IMG/VR virus record: IMGVR_UViG_2695420380_000007
From: a virus
Lineage: Duplodnaviria; Heunggongvirae; Uroviricota; Caudoviricetes
Direction: 5' to 3' (one strand)
DNA length: 25,520 nucleotides
A model generated the notes under the pieces. The model had not been told where the DNA came from, searched no databases, and saw only the letters and a list, made by a program, of their open reading frames with translations. Positions 9,334-25,520 of the stretch are shown in pieces (positions within the stretch are counted from its first letter, which is position 1; the number at the start of each line of letters is the position of its first letter). A program made the translations under genes and the position numbers.

Positions 9334-9966
9334 TCAGAGATGGCCCAGCTCACATCGCGCCACAAATCCGATGTCTGTATATCCAGTGCGTCCGCNNNNN
9401 NNNNNNNNNNNNNNNNNNNNNNNNNNNNGGCGGTCGCCCTTGTCCGTTGTGTCCGCATCGCGGTAACGCTCCAGAATCAGGGCGCGTGTGGCGGTATAAA
9501 CAGCATTGCGCCAGTGCCAGAGATTGACGCTTTCTCCGTTAATTACAGGTGCCGGAACATCGGCCAGCNNNNNNNNNNNNNNNNNNNNNNNNNNNNNNNN
9601 NNNNNNNNNNNNNNNNNNNNNNNNNNNNNNNNNNNNNNNNNNNNNNNNNNNNNNNNNNNNNNNNNNNNNNNNNNNNNNNNNNNNNNNNNNNNNNNNNNNN
9701 NNNNNNNNNNNNNNNNNNNNNNNNNNNNNNNNNNNNNNNNNNNNNNNNNNNNNNNNNNNNNNNNNNNNNNNNNNNNNNNNNNNNNNNNNNNNNNNNNNNN
9801 NNNNNNNNNNNNNNNNNNNNNNNNNNNNNNNNNNNNNNNNNNNNNNNNNNNNNNNNNNNNNNNNNNNNNNNNNNNNNNNNNNNNNNNNNNNNNNNNNNNN
9901 NNNNNNNNNNNNNNNNNNNNNNNNNNNGTGCGCGGTGTAAACGGTCACGGAGCCAAACCGGAACAC
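9334..9966 (-). CDS. L: Head completion/stabilisation protein L (largely hidden by N-runs 9397-9428 and 9569-9927)
   Basis: Position between M and X; the visible middle segment 9429-9568 encodes a clean peptide on the minus strand (LADVPAPVINGESVNLWHWRNAVYTATRALILERYRD...). Boundaries approximate. Confidence 0.5.
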   Translation of the reverse strand: MFRFGSVTVYTAHXXXXXXXXXXXXXXXXXXXXXXXXXXXXXXXXXXXXXXXXXXXXXXXXXXXXXXXXXXXXXXXXXXXXXXXXXXXXXXXXXXXXXXXXXXXXXXXXXXXXXXXXXXXXXXXXXXXXXXXXLADVPAPVINGESVNLWHWRNAVYTATRALILERYRDADTTDKGDRXXXXXXXXXXXXGRTGYTDIGFVARCELGHL

Positions 9967-9997: not shown

Positions 9998-10798
9998 TTA
10001 ACCGCGCTTCGCCTTCTGCGTCGCGGTGGTTTTTCGTGTTGCAGGCTTCCGCGTTGTCTTTTTACTTTCGCTGCTTTCGTCCTGCGCCTGCTGTGCGCTG
10101 GCGTCTTCTGGTGCGGCTGCGGAATCGGCTTTTTTCAGGGCGCGGGAAAGGGTTGCAATCTCGCGTTTCACACCTGCGTTCTGGTTCAGATGCATCGCTT
10201 CGCGCAGCAGCTTCAGTGATGAGGCCATGCTGTCCGCATCGCTCAGGCCACGGCGGGCAAAGGCGCACGCCTTGCATAATTTGGCGCGCACTTCGTCCGG
10301 CATATCCTGGTTGGCGACAATTTCCCAAAGTGTGTCCAGTGGTTCGATAAAGACGGACAAATCCGCGTCGGCATCCGTCCCGGCCTGCGTCAGTACCGGA
10401 TTGCAGATTTCTTCGGTCAGCACTGTGGCAGCAGTACGGCCAAAGTTATCCGGCATGATGAGGTTGTGACGGACCGCATACGCACCAATACGCAGCGCAA
10501 GCGGAAGATCGCCGCAGTCAATCGCCCACACCATCAGCGTGGCAATCACTTCGTCCTGTTGCCCGCCGTCAGCCTCCAGCGTTCCCTCAATCCAGCCGGA
10601 AAAGTCCGGCAACAACGCTTTTTTGATGTCGGCTTTCGCGCTTCTGGCCTGTACGCCCTTAAGCCGGGCCTGTGCCAGACGCAGACGATACAGCACCTCT
10701 TCATGCGCGGTACGCGCGGCGTGGTCCACACCTTCATTCGCCCGGCCTGCGCGCTGTGCCATCACGTTCTGCCAGTGTTGCTGTGCAGGAGTAATCAT
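9998..10798 (-). CDS. M: Terminase small (endonuclease) subunit M
   Basis: 266 aa, ATG 10796-10798 preceded by GGAGAG; position between N and L; basic Ala/Lys-rich C-terminal tail. Confidence 0.8.
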   Translation of the reverse strand: MITPAQQHWQNVMAQRAGRANEGVDHAARTAHEEVLYRLRLAQARLKGVQARSAKADIKKALLPDFSGWIEGTLEADGGQQDEVIATLMVWAIDCGDLPLALRIGAYAVRHNLIMPDNFGRTAATVLTEEICNPVLTQAGTDADADLSVFIEPLDTLWEIVANQDMPDEVRAKLCKACAFARRGLSDADSMASSLKLLREAMHLNQNAGVKREIATLSRALKKADSAAAPEDASAQQAQDESSESKKTTRKPATRKTTATQKAKRG

Positions 10799-12787: not shown

Positions 12788-14766
12788 ATGATGGCAAAGC
12801 GTAACAGGCTGATACAAAGGGCTTTTGTTGTAAGAAAACGGCCAGANNNNNNNNNNNNNNNNNNNNNNNNNNNNNNNNNNNNNNNNNNNNNNNNNNNNNN
12901 NNNNNNNNNNNNNNNNNNNNNNNNNNNNNNNNNNNNNNNNNNNNNNNNNNNNNNNNNNNNNNNNNNNNNNNNNNNNNNNNNNNNNNNNNNNNNNNNNNNN
13001 NNNNNNNNNNNNNNNNNNNNNNNNNNNNNNNNNNNNNNNNNNNNNNNNNNNNNNNNNNNNNNNNNNNNNNNNNNNNNNNNNNNNNNNNNNNNNNNNNNNN
13101 NNNNNNNNNNNNNNNNNNNNNNNNNNNNNNNNNNNNNNNNNNNNNNNNNNNNNNNNNNNNNNNNNNNNNNNNNNNNNNNNNNNNNNNNNNNNNNNNNNNN
13201 NNNNNNNNNNNNNNNNNNNNNNNNNNNNNNNNNNNNNNNNNNNNNNNNNNNNNNNNNNNNNNNNNNNNNNNNNNNNNNNNNNNNNNNNNNNNNGATGCGA
13301 CGGCCACAGGAAAGAAAGGCCGGGCGAAAAAACTCAAAAATCATTTCACGCCGGAACAGATTGCCGCACTGCGGGAAAAAATCATCAGCAGGCTGGAGTG
13401 GCATCAGCGGGGCTGGTTTGACTCCCTGACGCTTTGCAGGGAAGCCGGGATACGTAACAGGATGATCCTGAAATCCCGACAGATTGGGGCGACCTGGTAT
13501 TTTGCACAGGAAGCACTGCTGATGGCGCTGCGTGACGATGTGGCACAACCTTACCAGCGTAACCAGATTTTTTTGTCTGCGTCGCGTCGTCAGGCGTTCC
13601 AGTTTAAAAGCATTATTCAGAAGGCCGCGGCTGAAGTCGATGTGGAGCTGAAAGGGGGCGATAAAATCATCCTCTCCAACGGCGCAGAGATGCATTTTCT
13701 CGGCACTTCTGCTGCGACGGCGCAATCTTACACGGGCAATTTTTATTTTGATGAATTTTTCTGGGTCAGTCGCTTTGCTGAACTGCGCAAGGTGGCTGGC
13801 GCTATGGCAACCCTCAGCGGACTGCGGCGCACCTGCTTCTCCACGCCATCCACCGAAACGCACGAGGCATACGCCTACTGGAACGGCGACCGCTGGAACG
13901 AGAAAAAGGCCGCGCATAAACGCCAGCGTTTTTCTGTGGACTGGAAAACGCTGCATAACGGGCTTATCTGCCCTGACCGGACGTGGCGGCAAATTGTCAC
14001 GCTGGAAGATGTGGTTAATCACGGCTGGAAACACACCGATATTGATGAAATTCGTGATGAAAACACCGAAGACGAGTTCCGCAATCTCTATATGTGTGAG
14101 TTTGTCCGCGAAGGGGAATCGGCATTTAACCTGAATATCCTGATTGGCTGCGGTGTTGACGGATACGACGACTGGAAAGACTGGAAACCCTTTGCCCCCC
14201 GCCCGATGGGGAATCGTCCGGTATGGATTGGGTATGACGCAAACGGCAGCAGTGGTAACGGCGACAGCGGCGCTGTGTCCGTGGTGGTTCCTCCGGCTGT
14301 TCCTGGTGGTCGTTTCAGAACGGTGGAGACGCGACGCGTTCAGGGGCTGGAATTTGAAGAGCAGGCCAGAGTTATTGAAGAGTTCACGTATCGCTACAAC
14401 GTGGAACACATCGGCATTGATGCGACGGGCGGGCACGGGGATGCCGTCTATCAGATAGTGAAACGGTTTTTTCCCGCCGCCATCCCTTACACCTTCACGC
14501 TGTCATCAAAACGGTCGCTGGTACTGAAAATGCTGCAAATAATGCGTGCCGGGCGGTGGGAATACGATCGCGCCGAACGCGAGCTGGTTGCGGCCTTTAA
14601 CGCCGTGCGTAAGGTGAAAACACCGGGCGGTTTTATCACTTACGAAACGGACCGCGCGAGGGGGATCAGCCACGGCGACCTTGCGTGGGCAACCATGCTT
14701 GCTGTCATTAACGAACCGATTGGCGGCGAAGGAGAAAACGAGCGTTTCACGGTTATGGAGTTCTGA
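12788..14766 (+). CDS. P: Terminase large (ATPase) subunit P; 5' end uncertain because of N-run 12847-13293
   Basis: Unambiguous coding from 13294 (KSRQIGATWYFAQEALL... to stop at 14766). If the N-run is an artefact with a 2-nt overlap (ga), the frame joins ATGATG at 12788. ATGA overlap with Q. Confidence 0.7.
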
Positions 14767-15812
14767 TGAGCAGAAAAAATAAAAAAGTGCGCATGAGTTC
14801 ACGCATTGATCTCGCTGATGCGCTCAGGAAAGAATCGTCGCTCAGTGCATTCACATTTGATGGTCCTTACCGCCTGACCGGGCATGACCTGCTGGACAAT
14901 ATGTACTGTGCTGATAACGGGCGGTGGTATGAAACCCCGGTGGACTGGTACGGTCTGGCAAGAGCTGCCCGGCAAACGTCCTGGCATCAGTCTGCGCTTT
15001 ACTTTAAGCGCAATGTATTGCTCGGCTGCTATATTCCGCACCCGCTGCTTTCCCGGCAGGATTTCTCGGCGCTGGCGCTGGACTGGTTTGTGTTCGGTAA
15101 CGCATTCCTTGAGCTTCGGAGCAATATGCTCGGCGAACCGCTTAAATTACGGCACGCCCTGGCGAAATACATGCGACGCGGAAGCGATCTTGAATCATGG
15201 TGGTATGTGCAGGATGGCAAGGATGCGTTTCAGTTTCGTCCTGGCAAAGTGTGCCACCTGATGAATCCGGATATTAACCAGGAAATCTACGGCATGCCGG
15301 AATATCTTGGCGCATTACTCTCGGCCAGCCTTTCTCATTCGGCGGACATGTTCAGAAAACTGTACTACGACAACGGATCCCACGCCGGGTGCATCATCTA
15401 CATCGGTGCAGCGCAGGTAAACCGCGAAAGCATGGACTCCCTGAAAGAAACGCTACAGGGGGCACGTGGTGGTGGTGCGTTTAAAAACGTGCTCATTCAT
15501 GCGCCCAACGGGGGCAAAGAGGGGGTGCAAATTTTGCCGTTCCAGCAGATCACCGCAAAGGATGAGTTCATGAATGTTAAGGCGGCATCCCGTGATGATG
15601 TGCTGGCTGCGCACCGCGTTCCGCCGCAACTGATGGGGGCGATGCCGGGCGAAAAAAGTGCGTTTGGTGATGTGGAGAAGGCCGCGCGGGTTTACGCAAT
15701 TAACGAGCTGATGCCCGTCATGGAGGCCATGAAGCACATCAATGACTGGCTTGGCGAAGAGGTGATCCGCTTTAACCCTTACGCACTGTTAGACACCCAG
15801 CCCACATCCTGA
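14766..15812 (+). CDS. Q: Portal vertex protein Q
   Basis: 348 aa, ATG 14766-14768 overlapping the P stop; size and position (last gene before the presumed cos region) match P2 gpQ. Confidence 0.8.
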   Translation: MSRKNKKVRMSSRIDLADALRKESSLSAFTFDGPYRLTGHDLLDNMYCADNGRWYETPVDWYGLARAARQTSWHQSALYFKRNVLLGCYIPHPLLSRQDFSALALDWFVFGNAFLELRSNMLGEPLKLRHALAKYMRRGSDLESWWYVQDGKDAFQFRPGKVCHLMNPDINQEIYGMPEYLGALLSASLSHSADMFRKLYYDNGSHAGCIIYIGAAQVNRESMDSLKETLQGARGGGAFKNVLIHAPNGGKEGVQILPFQQITAKDEFMNVKAASRDDVLAAHRVPPQLMGAMPGEKSAFGDVEKAARVYAINELMPVMEAMKHINDWLGEEVIRFNPYALLDTQPTS

Positions 15813-15862: not shown

Positions 15863-16303
15863 GACTCTCCAGCTCCTGTATCAGTCAGATAATTTCACGA
15901 CGCTTTCCTGCTGATTGCCATCATCGACAGTCAGACTCTTACGCAATCCCACCTCGTTGACTGCATATTCTCGCCGTCTCAGTGCGATTTTGACGGCCTT
16001 ACCTTTCACCCCATCAAATCAAAAGCCCTCACGTCTTTTTCACGCTCAGCGTGAGAAATACAGCCATTCTGTTGTATCTCTGCGACATCGTTCAGGGAAT
16101 GCTATTTACCCCCTGAAACGCGGGCTGTTCCCCCGTCACCTGCGCGCAGAAAAAACGCGTTTTTTTGTGCATGCACGGATCCTTGACGGATCCAGCCGCC
16201 ACGCGGGCCGGAAGGGCAAAAAGTCGTTCAAAAAAATTGTGCAAATTTGTGCACTATTGTGCATTTATAAAATCAACTAAAAAACACCTAGTGTGACTTA
16301 CCT
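15863..16303. other. Non-coding, palindrome-rich region between Q and the cargo operon; candidate cos/packaging region
   Basis: No credible ORF. Palindromes at 16040-16054, 16150-16165 and 16167-16176; CGGATCC direct repeat at 16176-16182 and 16187-16193; G-rich 19-mer 16122-16140. P2 cos lies next to Q (established knowledge). Confidence 0.4.
16237..16263. repeat. Three direct TTGTGCA repeats at exact 10-bp phasing
   Basis: TTGTGCA at 16237-16243, 16247-16253 and 16257-16263, immediately downstream of the stop of the last cargo gene. Confidence 0.6.
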
Positions 16304-16489
16304 CTACCACTCGATCGGCACGTAGTCATTAAGTTCCGGAGACCAATTGCACTTTTCACATCTGTGTTTTCCATTCTGGCAGATACATAAACGATAACGG
16401 CCACAATGCGGGCACCCATTTTCACCATTATCATAATCACCGAGCGACCATTCCTGCATAAGCAGCTCTTCTTCATCATCATTTAGCAT
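16304..16489 (-). CDS. Small Cys-rich (zinc-ribbon-like) protein, function unknown
   Basis: 61 aa; ATG 16487-16489 preceded by AAGGGGGA; CPHCGRYRLCICQNGKHRCEKC gives a CxxC...CxC...CxxC pattern; acidic N-terminus. Confidence 0.55.
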   Translation of the reverse strand: MLNDDEEELLMQEWSLGDYDNGENGCPHCGRYRLCICQNGKHRCEKCNWSPELNDYVPIEW

Positions 16490-16503
16490 TAATCCCCCTT
16501 GAG

Positions 16504-16743
16504 CTATTTACTCTTCTCGGCCCTCAAAATCATACGAGAACCATCATCCAGCTCCCAATTAATTTCACCGCCTTCTGCCATGACTAGATGCCAAACGAGT
16601 TGAGCGGCCTCGTTGGTTACATCGCGACCGCGATCATTTCCTACGCGGCGTTTTGTTCCGTCTCCTAAGTCACGCATTTTTGCCAATACGATGGTTTTTG
16701 ATAGCGGTGAAAAACCAAGCTGTAGTCGTGCTGAATTACTCAC
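16504..16743 (-). CDS. Hypothetical protein (79 aa)
   Basis: GTG start preceded by AGGGGG with 6-nt spacing; overlaps the stop of the upstream 174-aa gene (GTGA), suggesting translational coupling. Confidence 0.5.
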   Translation of the reverse strand: MSNSARLQLGFSPLSKTIVLAKMRDLGDGTKRRVGNDRGRDVTNEAAQLVWHLVMAEGGEINWELDDGSRMILRAEKSK

Positions 16744-17264
16744 TGGCTGCCCCCTTTGTACTGTGTTAACTCTTCCTGCTCCTGCATCATGCGATTGACC
16801 TGAACGCGTGTGCGTCGAACGGCAAAATTAAATTGAAACATGAGCCGGAACATTTCTGATGCTTCCGTGTGAGCATCACGGATAGGTGACAGGCGGTACA
16901 GTTCTGCCTCCGTAGCTTGTTGAATCAATGACAGATCAAATTGAAGTGCGGGTCTGGTACATTTTGCACATCTGGCAGCAAGCTCCGGTATTAGTCTCTT
17001 AACGAAGGTGTTTTGCACCGCTTTGTTGATTTGTGTCTGCATCCAAATCGCAAATTTCAGCGAACGCATAAGTTTGATAGCCTCGGGCAGCGGCAGATAG
17101 ATCATGCTGGTAGATTTGGGTGGTTGGTGAACCATCTTCACGGATACGCGATTTCGCAGCGTTCGGAAAATCGTGTTCCCAACAACAGCTTCTACGGATA
17201 CAGGACAGGGAGCCAGACCAGCCCGCAGTGCTTCTTTCATTAGCATGTATTCGTATTTTTTCAT
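16740..17264 (-). CDS. Hypothetical protein (174 aa)
   Basis: ATG 17262-17264 preceded by GAGGAA; 60 nt downstream of parR; no family recognised from the sequence. Confidence 0.55.
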   Translation of the reverse strand: MKKYEYMLMKEALRAGLAPCPVSVEAVVGNTIFRTLRNRVSVKMVHQPPKSTSMIYLPLPEAIKLMRSLKFAIWMQTQINKAVQNTFVKRLIPELAARCAKCTRPALQFDLSLIQQATEAELYRLSPIRDAHTEASEMFRLMFQFNFAVRRTRVQVNRMMQEQEELTQYKGGSQ

Positions 17265-17324: not shown

Positions 17325-17636
17325 TCATTCAGGAAATAATGCCCGGATATTCCCTGCTATCTGACTGGTTATCTGTGCGGTTGGTACTGGCTGTGGCACG
17401 GGGCGTTCTGTCCTGGTTTGTGTCACCGATAACGCCTCATCGTCAGCCCATGCAGCCAGTCGGTAAGCCTCTGCTGGATTCATTTTCAGAAGTGCCAGCC
17501 CGGCCAGAAAAGCCACGCGTTGGCCGCTTTTGCGGGCTTCTGGTGTAAGGCTGCCCAGCCAGGCGCATGCTTCGCTTTCGTTCTTGACGGCCGCAGGCTT
17601 CAGATAGAAACTTATCCGTCTGGTTGGTGTCGTCAT
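17325..17636 (-). CDS. parR: ParR-like centromere-binding protein (ribbon-helix-helix partition adaptor)
   Basis: ATG 17634-17636 preceded by AAGGAG, 4 nt after the parM stop; 103 aa; RRISFYLKP...EARKSGQRVAFLAGLAL resembles R1 ParR/StbB (from memory). The longer track ORF 17325-17771 overlaps parM. Confidence 0.65.
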   Translation of the reverse strand: MTTPTRRISFYLKPAAVKNESEACAWLGSLTPEARKSGQRVAFLAGLALLKMNPAEAYRLAAWADDEALSVTQTRTERPVPQPVPTAQITSQIAGNIRALFPE

Positions 17637-17640
17637 TGGT

Positions 17641-18600
17641 TTACTCCTTGTCCATTGCGTACAGCCCATTAACCAGAGCAAACTGTGGCACCCCGTCCGC
17701 GATGAAAGTCGCATTAACTCCGCAGGCTTCGCGGATAGCGGGTGCCACAATCTCCGCCCCTCCACCGACAACCATCACCCGCCCGTAACCCGAAAAACCC
17801 GCCAGCGCGCGGATCACGCGTTGTTTCAGTGTTTCTTCCTTTTCACGAATAACCGCCATCAGGCTGGCGTAATGCGCGTCATTGTGGATGTGCTGGCGCA
17901 GCCAGGCTTCATCATGGCGATGTTCGATAATGGTATTGGCGATGTGGTGACTGGTGCGCATACCGTTAGTGGCCATCACCGACAGTACGGCATCGGCCAT
18001 CAGAGAAACGCCTACGTGTGGATCGCAAAACACCTGGCTGATACCTGCCAGTTGCCCCTGAACCTTTGCCACATCCAGCGTGGTTCCGCCCAAATCCACA
18101 ATCAGCAGGGATTCAAACGGACTCATGTCAGCCAGTGCCTTAAAGCCAGCCGGAATGGATTCAGGCATAACCCGCACGTTACGGATAGTGAATGCTTCGC
18201 CGTTCTGGTACTCCACCGGGCGCATAACGTTCGCTTTTTTGCGGTTGATGTTGGCCATGTCCGGCTGTGCGTTTGTGTCGAAATACTCGCTCAGTGGCAG
18301 GGTGACAACCACATCCACCTCCTGTGGCGTGATGCCTGATTTGACCAGCGCGTGATGAATGGCAATGACATTTACATCGCTGTACTGGTATTGCGTGTCG
18401 GTTGTCTGGACAAAGCGATCGCTGACCGGATCAAAACCATAGCGCACGCCATCAAGCATGTAGTTCGCGGGCTGCATGCCACCGAACGGCGCAGACCATT
18501 CCGACTTGAAGCTGTTCGGGCTGATGGCGTTGCGGCGTTCGCCGTTCTCAGTCCATGCCAGCTTGATGTTGGTGGAGCCGTCGTCGATACAAATTTTCAT
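17641..18600 (-). CDS. parM: ParM/StbA actin-like segregation ATPase
   Basis: 319 aa, ATG 18598-18600 preceded by AAGGA; shared motifs with R1 ParM recalled from memory: IDDGSTNIKL, ISPNSFK, YSDVNV, NRKKAN, VMPESIPAG, LLIVDLGGTTLD, VMVVGGGAE. Confidence 0.85.
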   Translation of the reverse strand: MKICIDDGSTNIKLAWTENGERRNAISPNSFKSEWSAPFGGMQPANYMLDGVRYGFDPVSDRFVQTTDTQYQYSDVNVIAIHHALVKSGITPQEVDVVVTLPLSEYFDTNAQPDMANINRKKANVMRPVEYQNGEAFTIRNVRVMPESIPAGFKALADMSPFESLLIVDLGGTTLDVAKVQGQLAGISQVFCDPHVGVSLMADAVLSVMATNGMRTSHHIANTIIEHRHDEAWLRQHIHNDAHYASLMAVIREKEETLKQRVIRALAGFSGYGRVMVVGGGAEIVAPAIREACGVNATFIADGVPQFALVNGLYAMDKE

Positions 18601-18743: not shown

Positions 18744-21558
18744 TTTCCACTGGTCAGGCCACCCCGCAGCAGGTCTGCTTTGCGGCGGGCGCGTTCAGTG
18801 GTTTCACTGATTCTCTGTGCGTGCTCTGCGTCGCGGATGGCGCGCAGCATGTCAGAAAGCACGGTAACGGGTGTTTTCATGGTGTTCTGGTCCTGCTGAA
18901 GTGTGGATGCCAGGCGTGCGGCGGCTTCAGGGTCTGATGCCCCCAGCTGTGTCAGATAGCTGGCGACCGGGTTATGGCGGATCTCCGTGCTGCTTACGCC
19001 ATGATTACGGCTCAGGCGCTGCCAGAGCTGCGTGATTCGGCTGTCCGGGCGGGTATCCGGTTTGCGTACAATTTCAAATCCCTGCGGTGCAATGATGCTG
19101 CCGTCAACGTACAGACTGCCGCCCCGTAACAGGTGCTGCATCTGTTGTTCACCGATATGCAGGCCGAGAGATTCAGCAGACTCCCGCCATTCTTTAGCGA
19201 GTAATTCGTGGTTATCAGGCAAAGGCCGCTGCTGTTTGCGGCTCTGTGTCCAGCTCTGCATTTCATCACTGCTGTTTTTTGCCTGTTTGTCACGAAGCGA
19301 ACGCATCAGCGCCCGGCGTTCGTGCCGTTTCAGTGAGCGCATCCATTCATCCACATCAACGCCGTCAGGGAGCTGCGGCCACGGTGCTGGCCGTTCTTCC
19401 GGCTGTTCTGTCCCGTTGTTGTCCGTTTCCTGTACACGGGGACAGTTATTGCCACGAGTCCAAGGGGCGGCAGGGCCGCCCTGAAGGTCAAAACCATTTT
19501 CGCGGGCGCTGTCTTCCGCTTCCGGTTTGCGTCTTACCAGCTTCCAGTTATCCGGATGCGTGCACACACGGNNNNNNNNNNNNNNNNNNNNNNNNNNNNN
19601 NNNNNNNNNNNNNNNNNNNNNNNNNNNNNNNNNNNNNNNNNNNNNAAATCTGTACGCTCTGTTCGCCGTAATCGTTCAGCTCATCGGCGAGGTCGTAGGC
19701 GGTGCGAATCAGGTAGTCTTTGCGTGGAACAAGTACGCCGCCCTGTTTCTCTATGTAGGTGNNNNNNNNNNNNNNNNNNNNNNNNNNNNNNNNNNNNNNN
19801 NNNNNNNNNNNNNNNNNNNNNNNNNNNNNNNNNNNNNNNNNNNNNNNNNNNNNNNNNNNNNNNNNNNNNNNNNNNNNNNNNNNNNNNNNNNNNNNNNNNN
19901 NNNNNNNNNNNNNNNNNNNNNNNNNNNNNNNNNNNNNNNNNNNNNNNNNNNNNNNNNNNNNNNNNNNNNNNNNNNNNNNNNNNNNNNNNNNNNNNNNNNN
20001 NNNNNNNNNNNNNNNNNNNNNNNNNNNNNNNNTCGATGCCATCCACGGCGCGGCTGTCCAGGTTTTTCCCGATGTAGGTGGCGATGTAGCTGGTTGGCGT
20101 GCCTTTTGAGCCGTCTACATACTCCGCCTTAAAGCGCGGAGTTATGTCATCGCCCAGCTCGTGACGATCTTCCTGAATGGCAATATCGCGGGTGTGGGAC
20201 ACAATGGTGTCGATTTCTTCCGGATGAGCAAAGACCATCATATGCCAGTGCACGGTGCCGTCATGGTGAGGCTCCGCCGTGCGGATGCCATACCAGCGCA
20301 GGCCGTCGCGGTTCAGTTTTTTGCGGACCGTCGCAAAAAACGTGTTAACCAGGTAATCGCTGGAGTCGCGCATTGTGGCCCCGTTCCATTTGGGATTCGG
20401 ATGACCGTTCTCCGTTGTGGCGTGGTATTTTGACGGGCAGGTGACAGTCAGAAACACCGCTTTGTCGCCACGGGCTTCGGCCAGAAGTTCCAGCCCCTTC
20501 ATGGTGGCCATCATTTCTGCCTTACGGTGAACCGGGTTACTTACTCCCGCGTAATACACCGTCTCGAGATCAATCGTGAACCCGTCTTCATTTTCCAGCA
20601 TGAAACTTTTCAGGAAATCGCGTGTTTTCTCGCGCTGTGCGCGAAACTCGCTTAACGCGTCCTGGCTCAGATAGGGCGATGTTTTTCTGGAAACCAGACA
20701 GGCGGCGCGAAGTTGTTCTTCTCTCCACTCGCAACGTAACAGCCACAGTTTGCGTTTCCACCATTCCGCACAGGTCAGGCGAAGGATTGCGCCCGGCAGC
20801 AGTTCTGTGTCCGGTTCGTGCCTCCGGTCTTTGTCTGTTGTCAGTGCGTCATAATGCGGAGGCATGGCGTGTAAGTGTAACGCCATGCGGGCCAGCATCT
20901 GATACGCCTTCAGCGTTACATCCATGGTCAGCTCGCCATCAGTCGCGCCAAAACCATCGCAGAGTTTTTCGAAGGTGCTGCTGAACATCGCCGCCGTCAT
21001 GGTGGCCAGCGTCTGTATCTGGTGTTTGTTGAGTTGCGGCAGGTAAAGCAAATCGTCCAGGCGTTCACGTCCGGCAAGGGAGCGATAACCCGGTGTCAGC
21101 CAGTGTCCGTCAGTGCGATCCAGACGTTCGAATATTTTGCGCAGGGTTCCGCGTGCATAGCGTTCCGCCTGCCAGCTCTTTTTGCCTTTCCGGCGATCGG
21201 CTTCCTGTTTTTTGCGCAGGAAGGAGAGGTGGCGAATAAGCGGATCGCGCAGATAGGACGGCAGCAGGCGCAGCGAGGCCATGGCTTCATCCACCGCGCC
21301 GCGTGCCTGTTTTCTGGCGTCTCCTGCCAGTGTGATGGTTTTGTCCTGTTTTTCCTGTGCGTCCAGGCTTTTATTAATCAGGTTGCCCAGTGGCGTGGCG
21401 GAGAACGCCGCATCAGCCATTTCCTGGCGGCGCTCGTTCTCTGCCCGGTGGGCATCCAGCCAGGAGGAAAGCGCGGATTCAGGAGCGGGGATCCCCGTTC
21501 CTTCACGCCCCACTGCGTGGCGCGGTTGTTGCCAGTCCCTGATGTACTCTGCCGTCAT
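18677..21558 (-). CDS. A: Replication initiation endonuclease A (rolling-circle HUH type), interrupted by N-runs 19572-19645 and 19762-20032
   Basis: N-terminal ORF 19681-21558 (ATG 21556-21558) has the HUH motif HWHMMVF. Segment 19646-19761 encodes a clean peptide that joins the N-terminal frame if the 271-N run is removed. Assignment of ORF 18677-19567 as the C-terminus is inferred. Confidence 0.75.
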
Positions 21559-25437: not shown

Positions 25438-25520
25438 NNNNNNNNNNNNNNNNNNNNNNNNNNNNNNNNNNNNNNNNNNNNNNNNNNNNNNNNNNNNNNN
25501 NNNNNNNNNNNNCATAAAGA

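Follow-up and report, generated by a model that had tools for sequence, protein, structure and literature searches.

The 25,520-nucleotide virus record IMGVR_UViG_2695420380_000007 (Caudoviricetes), which we call the window, is a prophage of the P88 type (genus Xuanwuvirus) within the P2 family, and at 16237–16263 it carries three copies of TTGTGCA on one face of the DNA (the boxes). We find that these boxes are probably the distal part of the cis-acting cohesive-end (cos) packaging signal of this prophage. We put the probability of this reading, which is drawn from sequence comparison, at about 0.7. The original prediction for this DNA had listed a terminase site like lambda cosB among several candidates, and comparison now favors it: the boxes are locked in position to the cos cut across the P2 family, and they end the block that phages and satellites share.

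Phased repeats at the edge of the cos region

Positions 16230–16266 of the window read AAAAAAA-TTGTGCA-AAT-TTGTGCA-CTA-TTGTGCA-TTT. As originally noticed, the three copies are all on the plus strand, with starts at 16237, 16247, and 16257 (box 1, 16237–16243; box 2, 16247–16253; box 3, 16257–16263) and a period of exactly 10 bp. The constant-period arrangement, rather than the number of heptamers, is the unusual feature. TTGTGCA itself is not enriched (7 copies in the whole window versus 6.4 expected), but it is the sole 7-mer in the window that is present three times at a constant period of 7–15 bp, and when the window was simulated 400 times with a first-order Markov model, a constant-period triple at periods of 8–12 never arose (analytically, 5e-4 are expected per window). 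A fourth TTGTGCA, which the original prediction did not include, lies 72 bp upstream (16165–16171, plus strand) and is part of the same system; we refer to it as the proximal box. An A-tract (TTCAAAAAAA, 16227–16236, plus strand) adjoins box 1.

To avoid circularity, we sampled relatives independently of the repeats, by using a 16-mer from the left part of the region. On viral contigs the 16-mer was used alone, and on one genome per species we asked for the 16-mer together with GTGCA (from the proximal box) 17–20 bp later. This gave 130 usable loci, which we reduced to 72 representatives that are less than 90% identical. Among these representatives, the box positions are 80–99% conserved and the 3-bp spacers between the boxes less so, the array is free of insertions or deletions in 70 of 72, and conservation drops to about 30%, which is the background, at 16264. 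(The A-tract is 80–90% conserved, and is confined to P88-type lineages.) A score for the phased triple averages 20.0 of 21 at period 10, as compared to 11–13 at periods 8, 9, 11, and 12. Also, the offset of box 1 from the TGCGCGC anchor at the left of the region is 96 bp in 115 of 137 distinct sequences (range 94–97). By BLAST of 16120–16275, the region is present in 1148 of 5426 complete E. coli genomes, and homology in 1139 of the 5426 typically stops at query base 144; this is window position 16263, where box 3 ends. The three boxes are found likewise in phage P88, with divergence directly after them. So, the search of related prophages that had been suggested at the outset recovers the phased motif in E. 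coli genomes, in the 72 diverged representatives, and in phage P88. Judging from these alignments, the boxes are the last conserved element of the cos region and the outer edge of the packaging signal.

Exact TTGTGCA-N3 triples are also found in metagenomes, where they are mostly unrelated 10-bp tandem arrays. Among 197 exact-triple matches from the metagenome scan and from further viral-contig loci, 51 have cos context. (Unrelated environmental contigs, such as L271, L283, and L234, have long tandem arrays of 10-bp units that contain TTGTGCA and lack cos context; these are a different thing.)

The original prediction put phased protein-binding sites beside a presumed cos that it did not place. 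The location has held up, and the repeats do look like sites of that kind. We propose that a cos unit of about 145 bp (roughly 16122–16263) probably comprises a homologue of the nicking site cosN, a hairpin, the proximal box, a spacer, and the three distal boxes. The putative cosN, a homologue of the 19-nt cohesive ends of P2 and 186, lies within 16122–16142: it is GCTGTTCCCCCGTCACCTG (16124–16142) in a MAFFT alignment or GGGCTGTTCCCCCGTCACC (16122–16140) by eye. This segment lines up, column by column, with the overhangs that experiments have defined in P2, P4, and 186 and is 90–99% conserved in the 72 representatives. An ungapped comparison of its reverse complement, GGTGACGGGGGAACAGCCC, to the P2 overhang, GGCGAGGCGGGGAAAGCAC, gives 13 matches in 19 positions. 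Furthermore, one lineage (L172, L178, L179, and L180) reads GCGCGC-GCTTGCTCCCCCGCCTCGCC-TGCGCGC-hairpin-TTTTTGTGCA, where the segment in the middle is the cohesive end of P2, oriented as in P2, and the near-P2 overhang of L172 and L180 sits at the same place as the cosN homologue of the window. From this homology, we infer a cut at 16122–16142. We had considered two other placements, which we dropped on the evidence of L172 and L180 and of the full alignment: a cut next to GCGCGCA at 16153–16171, which superficially matches CCGTCAGCGCGCA of P2, and a cut at 16201–16219, which was suggested by the break in the P88_4B11 record (see below) along with an inverted likeness to the P2 overhang.

The rest of the unit follows the P2 plan. 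The cosN homologue is followed by an inverted repeat (16141–16165), which consists of TGCGCGCAG and then the palindrome AAAAAACGCGTTTTTT (16150–16165) and is the counterpart of the P2 hairpin CGCCCGCTTCACGGGGCGG; other lineages keep the stem with other sequence (GCGCG..CGCGC or CGCAG..CTGCG). The proximal box comes next, with a T-run from 16160, and TTTTTTTGTGCA (16160–16171) is the homologue of TTTTAATGCA, with which the published 55-bp cos core ends. The spacer (16172–16226) is conserved in length and poorly conserved in sequence, with a semi-conserved GGGCCGGAAGGGCA at 16205–16218. Each part of the 55-bp core can be recognized in the window: a GCGCGC-like left edge, the overhang, a hairpin of different sequence, and the counterpart of TTTTAATGCA. 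The location matches as well, as the portal gene ends at 15812, the cargo begins at 16264, and gpA is further to the right, and the layout of P2 is alike.

We also note two features of this region in particular lineages. The spacer of the window contains a direct repeat of ACGGATCC (16175–16182 and 16186–16193, an 11-bp period) that is found only in the E. coli P88 lineage; at this site other lineages have CAGACCGCGCC...GGCG, like P4 and 186. And two loci (L223 and L267) have a chimeric cos, which is of the P88 type to the right of TGCGCGC but has another overhang homologue (GCGCCCTTCCCTCGTCGCC). This suggests recombination inside the cos region at TGCGCGC.

Distances from the cut across the P2 family and its satellites

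We aligned 12 sequences (P2, P4, and 186 with the window, four other phage lineages, and two satellites), and the alignment is nearly gapless over 190 columns. Counting from the last base of the known overhang to the start of the TGCA core, we found TGCA at +26, +98, and +108 in P2, P4, 186, the window, its relatives, and the satellites. A further copy is at +120 in P2, at +121 in P4, at +117/+121 in 186, and at +118 (box 3) in the window, its relatives, and the satellites. The TGCA at +26, which is the proximal box, is present in 12 of 12 sequences, and the TTTT..TGCA columns are invariant, as are the C/G columns of the overhang.

Next, we chose from a BLAST table of P2 relatives seven phages whose +30..+95 sequence is unrelated. 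L-413C, STYP1, Kp4852-2, pro483, and Ralstonia phage RSY1 have boxes at +98 and +108, while pro147 has TGCG at +98 and ATGCA at +108 and +118 (the seventh phage, fiAA91-ss, is discussed below). We then probed with the P2 overhang in an unbiased survey, which gave 61 P2/P4-type lineages that differ in +31..+95. TGCA is present at +26 in 56 of the 61, at +97 to +99 in 50, at +107 to +109 in 49, and at +116 to +121 in 42, and the spacing between box 1 and box 2 is 10 bp in 51 of 56. In contrast, on the opposite flank, which served as a control, no position has TGCA in more than 1 of the 61 lineages. As the boxes recur beside unrelated spacers in about 50 of the 61 lineages, pure hitch-hiking with neighboring sequence is excluded.

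What varies between lineages is the flank of the TGCA core, which is TTGTGCA in the P88 type, (C/A)ATGCA in the P2 type, and TTATGCA in RSY1. The consensus of the P2-type element is (C/A)ATGCAAAnT(C/a)ATGCA. By alignment, TTGTGCAAATTTGTGCAC in the window is the P2-type element with other flanks and a regular third copy.

The same block is carried by satellites. A match in E. coli at 78% identity falls in a 12.5-kb island between hpt and gcd (L007/L354; NZ_CP148349.1 2561275–2573786). The island encodes two integrases, AlpA, an Icd-like protein, an 889-amino-acid Toprim (primase-like) protein, an Ogr/Delta zinc finger, a 236-amino-acid protein, and a P2-family capsid, and has neither a portal nor a terminase gene. 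The cos block without a portal gene upstream is also found in Izhakiella, Ca. Erwinia dacicola, Klebsiella indica, Apirhabdus, and a metagenome-assembled genome. (We read the gene content in the E. coli island and in the Izhakiella locus, L163, which has an integrase, a capsid gene, and an Ogr/Delta gene; L141, L144, L147, L159, and L167 were assigned on having the shared cos block and no portal gene upstream.) We compared six islands to seven phages over ±1.5 kb and found a single shared block for each pair, with the match split in two for one pair. The shared block extends from −22/−43 to +122 relative to TGCGCGC, which corresponds to 16119–16263 in the window, so that it ends on box 3. Within it, the satellites have the three boxes intact and exactly phased, whereas the spacer has diverged. 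The comparison of phages and satellites can be viewed as a natural deletion analysis, in which what a satellite must copy from its helper appears to end at box 3.

The capsid genes of these islands are a separate observation. The capsid homologue of the E. coli island is 35% identical to gpN of the window and takes the place of sid/psu in a P4-like set of genes. The island capsids have 423–432 amino acids with an N-terminal extension, and the companion protein has 236–264 amino acids. We found no mention of a capsid gene in the searchable surveys of P4-like satellites.

The terminase and other candidate readers of the boxes

The distance from the boxes to cosN is fixed over a spacer that is free to vary in sequence and not in length, which points to a single protein assembly that contacts cosN, the proximal box, and the distal boxes. 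By analogy, the terminase (gpM with gpP) is the obvious candidate for this assembly. The small subunit gpM is encoded at 9998–10798 on the minus strand (Pfam PF05944, Phage_term_smal, E = 1.3e-36; 36% identical to P2 gpM) and would act along with the large subunit gpP. Its AlphaFold2 model (mean predicted local distance difference test score of 82) is all-alpha and resembles a tetratricopeptide repeat (TPR), with a disordered basic C-terminal tail. (This predicted fold does not resemble the small terminases of known structure that have a winged helix or form rings.) The boxes could be read by gpM in some unfamiliar way, by gpP, or by the two in complex. We propose that the P2-type terminase contacts the proximal and distal boxes together and that the spacer of about 65 bp is bent or wrapped, which would set the nuclease on cosN and mark the genome for packaging. 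The three distal boxes, being on one face of the DNA, would act in a mode like that of lambda cosB. If the boxes are needed in cis, then satellites that parasitize these phages must carry them, and cargo swapping in the hotspot can never cross box 3.

A published result fits this model of a distal element. In a study of P4 cosmids, longer flanks around the 55-bp cos core improved transduction about 2000-fold (0.035 vs. 1.7e-5; PMC9594776). The distal boxes may explain this effect.

Several observations weigh against assigning the boxes to the packaging signal. The conserved 55-bp core of P2, 186, and the satellite P4 (Ziermann and Calendar 1990, as cited in PMC3931495, PMC5694545, and PMC9122126) has been taken as "the" cos (PMC3931495, PMC5694545). 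This core ends at +29, and the BLAST homology of close P2 relatives to the right arm of P2 ends at +29 as well. The third box is not fixed in P2-type phages, where it floats 9, 10, or 13 bp after box 2 and is absent in 14 of 51, and fiAA91-ss has just a degenerate pair that is shifted by 1 bp. One P88 derivative (L076; IMGVR_UViG_2648501669_000002, at about oriented position 1613) lacks the spacer and box 1 because of a box-to-box deletion between the proximal TTGTGCA and distal box 2. For this phage type there is a single linear record, that of P88_4B11 (NC_049391.1; L002 and L004), and its break is at 16218|16219 and not at the putative cosN. This break falls between GGGCA and AAAA, 76 bp rightward of the overhang homologue; if it is a real end, then the cut would be about 76 bp to the right of 16122–16142, and the boxes would still be 18 bp away from it. 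Finally, we did not find a helix-turn-helix or another recognizable sequence-specific DNA-binding domain in the gpM model, and a sequence search gave no homologue of gpM in the PDB.

Some details of these exceptions are worth recording. L076 has an Ogr-like gene directly to the left of cos and is missing the block from portal to tail, while ParR, ParM, and gpA are kept (96% identity); this locus may be a prophage in decay or a mini-element derived from a phage. CACGCGGGCCGGAAGGGCA, just left of the P88_4B11 break, resembles the P2 overhang in inverted orientation. We saw no pile-up of contig ends at cos in the viral and metagenome collections.

A bend-inducing element was also among the candidates of the original prediction, and the boxes may be one. 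Even if the boxes are in cos, they might be read by a DNA-bending or nucleoid protein of the host, with the bend bringing the distal DNA to cosN. The phasing of the boxes and the conserved A7 tract beside them would suit a bending element, the predicted structure of gpM has no obvious DNA-binding domain, and the boxes are retained in hosts from E. coli to Ralstonia. However, no site within 16100–16280 matches the consensus of integration host factor (IHF), WATCAANNNNTTR, with at most one mismatch, and we know of no host protein with a TTGTGCA-type site. Also, the lineage-specific flanks of TGCA fit a phage-encoded reader better than a shared host protein, so we consider a host reader to be unlikely. 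It is quite improbable that the boxes are a transcription signal at the border of backbone and cargo, either a minus-strand intrinsic terminator (GTGCA-loop-TGCAC followed by T7) or part of a promoter of the hotspot. A terminator scan does report a hairpin with a T-run at 16254–16239 on the minus strand, which would stop cargo transcripts from entering cos, and in P2 the third ATGCA box overlaps the inferred −35 hexamer of the old promoter, about 30 bp upstream of the annotated starts at 33424/33426. But the hairpin is weak (−6.1 kcal/mol, z = −0.67; 48 of 200 shuffled sequences fold equally well), and in about a quarter of the lineages variation at 16253/16254 breaks the stem and is not compensated at 16239/16240. 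A promoter scan found no promoter-like site overlapping the boxes, the cargo genes are oriented either way relative to the boxes depending on the lineage, and P2, 186, and P4 keep the boxes while lacking the hairpin and T-run. Also, a transcription signal would have no need of a base-pair-exact distance from cosN.

Another candidate in the original prediction was a site for ParR or another cargo regulator, with the boxes as a centromere or operator. Phased direct repeats are typical of the parC sites of type II partition systems, and a ParM/ParR-like pair is encoded in the same prophage at 17325–18600, about 1.1–2.4 kb from the boxes (Pfam). Nevertheless, we reject this idea because the boxes are present whatever the cargo: ParM is encoded in just 33 of the 77 box loci with 3 kb or more of sequence downstream, 39 distinct sequences are seen at the junction with box 3, and P2, 186, P4, and the satellites keep the boxes and do not have ParMR. 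Furthermore, relative to the par operon the boxes are on the wrong side, past its 3′ end rather than upstream of parM; there are only three copies at 10 bp; and the block that contains them is conserved backbone rather than variable cargo. Could the boxes instead lack an intrinsic function, as a homology anchor for cargo exchange or as an array through which a helper regulator such as Cox acts on satellites? The recombination boundary of the hotspot does coincide exactly with box 3, and P2 Cox binds phased direct repeats elsewhere. This seems very unlikely, as hitch-hiking cannot account for the recurrence at +98/+108 beside non-homologous spacers in about 50 of the 61 lineages, the box position is tied to cosN and not to any promoter, and the boxes are unlike the Cox box (TTAAAGNCA) or the Ogr site (TGT-N12-ACA). 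Readings based on the consensus sequences for CRP, Ogr, and the Cox box also misfit the box sequence. A DnaA box was considered as well, as TGTGCAAAT matches 8 of 9 positions of TGTGNAWAA, and was rejected because P2-type boxes do not have TGTG.

Setting of the cos unit, related systems, and significance

A nearly identical annotated prophage is present in E. coli FDAARGOS_943 (RefSeq). Its gene order is gpM, capsid, and scaffold (minus strand); large terminase and portal (plus strand); about 700 bp without annotation; the cargo (minus strand); and the replication endonuclease. The cargo there, all on the minus strand, comprises DUF7446, a ClpX-type zinc finger, a ParR-like gene, and ParM. On the window, Pfam confirmed gpM (PF05944), the portal, DUF7446, the ParR-like gene, and ParM, and the layout of the prophage includes portal, gpM, capsid, ParMR cargo, and gpA. 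The portal gene (14766–15812, plus strand), which marks the left side of cos, is a homologue of P2 Q (Pfam PF04860; 47% identical to P2 gpQ; also annotated in RefSeq). Given identities to P2 of 36% (gpM) and 47% (portal), the window belongs, by sequence, to a well-diverged branch of the P2 family. (Runs of N mask parts of the window, including about 1894–1960, 9396–9900, 12847–13266, 19572–20005, and 25438–25485, among others. These runs break open reading frames: the large terminase has 434 amino acids in the window and 583 in the RefSeq copy. The box region is unaffected.)

To the right of box 3, and outside the cos element, the variable cargo hotspot starts (16264–17264, minus strand) with a 64-amino-acid open reading frame, DUF7446, and more genes. 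The original prediction had the repeats lying just past the stop of the last cargo gene, which is only roughly right. The nearest minus-strand open reading frame (16288–16482; MLNDDEEELL...CPHCGRYRLCICQNGKHRCEKCNW...) has a zinc-ribbon-like pattern of cysteines (CxxC), but it has no match in Pfam and is unannotated in the nearly identical RefSeq prophage. The first annotated cargo gene is DUF7446 (16504–16743, minus strand; RefSeq annotation and Pfam). The junction at the 64-amino-acid open reading frame recurs in three other loci (L012, L205, and L233).

The closest known systems are the cos sites of P2, 186, and P4, which are homologous to that of the window, collinear with it, and likewise between the portal gene and the cargo hotspot. 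They share the homologue of the G/C-rich 19-nt overhang, the hairpin, TTTT(AA/TG)TGCA at +20..+29, and the boxes at +98/+108 to the base pair, and in both cases the signal is common to phages and to satellites that use their capsids. The differences from P2 are that the overhang has diverged (13/19), that the hairpin of the window is AT-rich, and that the window has three perfect TTGTGCA at exactly 10 bp with an A7 tract, while the P2 type has two ATGCA and a floating third.

A more distant parallel is cosB of lambda, where the gpNu1 sites R3, R2, and R1 and the IHF site I1 lie on one side of the nick, with the repeats about 50–170 bp away, and are needed in cis for terminase assembly. In the window, too, several repeats (+26, +98, +108, and +118) are on one side of cosN within about 200 bp, so the overall scale matches. 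However, the boxes are all in direct orientation and repeat every 10 bp, there is no IHF consensus in 16100–16280, and gpM, which belongs to PF05944 and is predicted to be TPR-like, is unrelated to the winged-helix protein of lambda.

Thus, the cos of the P2 family is already known, as are accessory terminase sites as a kind of element. The P88-type cos and the distal, position-locked TGCA boxes outside the 55-bp core appear undescribed. We found no description of the distal boxes in the literature that we searched, although the deletion mapping of Ziermann and Calendar (1990), which was outside this search, may imply a longer site. Nor did we find TTGTGCAAATTTGTGCA printed in that literature. 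Papers on the hotspot describe a variable region "adjacent to cos" without a defined border (PMC9122126). So, this element is not a new kind of system; it is a precise extension of a classic packaging signal.

The working definition of cos in P2 and P4, now a 55-bp core, would grow to about 145 bp and take in a distal element whose distance is fixed. The effect of flanking sequence on P4 cosmids matters for gene-delivery particles that are based on P2 and P4. The cos-adjacent hotspot of defense genes in P2-like phages gains a precise inner boundary, at the last base of box 3, and the boxes provide a sequence signature for matching satellites to helper lineages.

A bolder possibility, which we raise tentatively and consider rather doubtful as a whole, is that the P2 family and its satellites have a bipartite cos, with boxes at +26 and at +98/+108/~+118 separated by about 65 bp of free sequence, that is read by a TPR-like small terminase without a helix-turn-helix. 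If so, this would be a mode of DNA recognition by terminase that has not been seen in lambda, P22, or SPP1. The flanks of the boxes (TTGTGCA vs. ATGCA) would then decide which satellites a given helper can package, and would also define where the defense-gene hotspot begins on its inner side.

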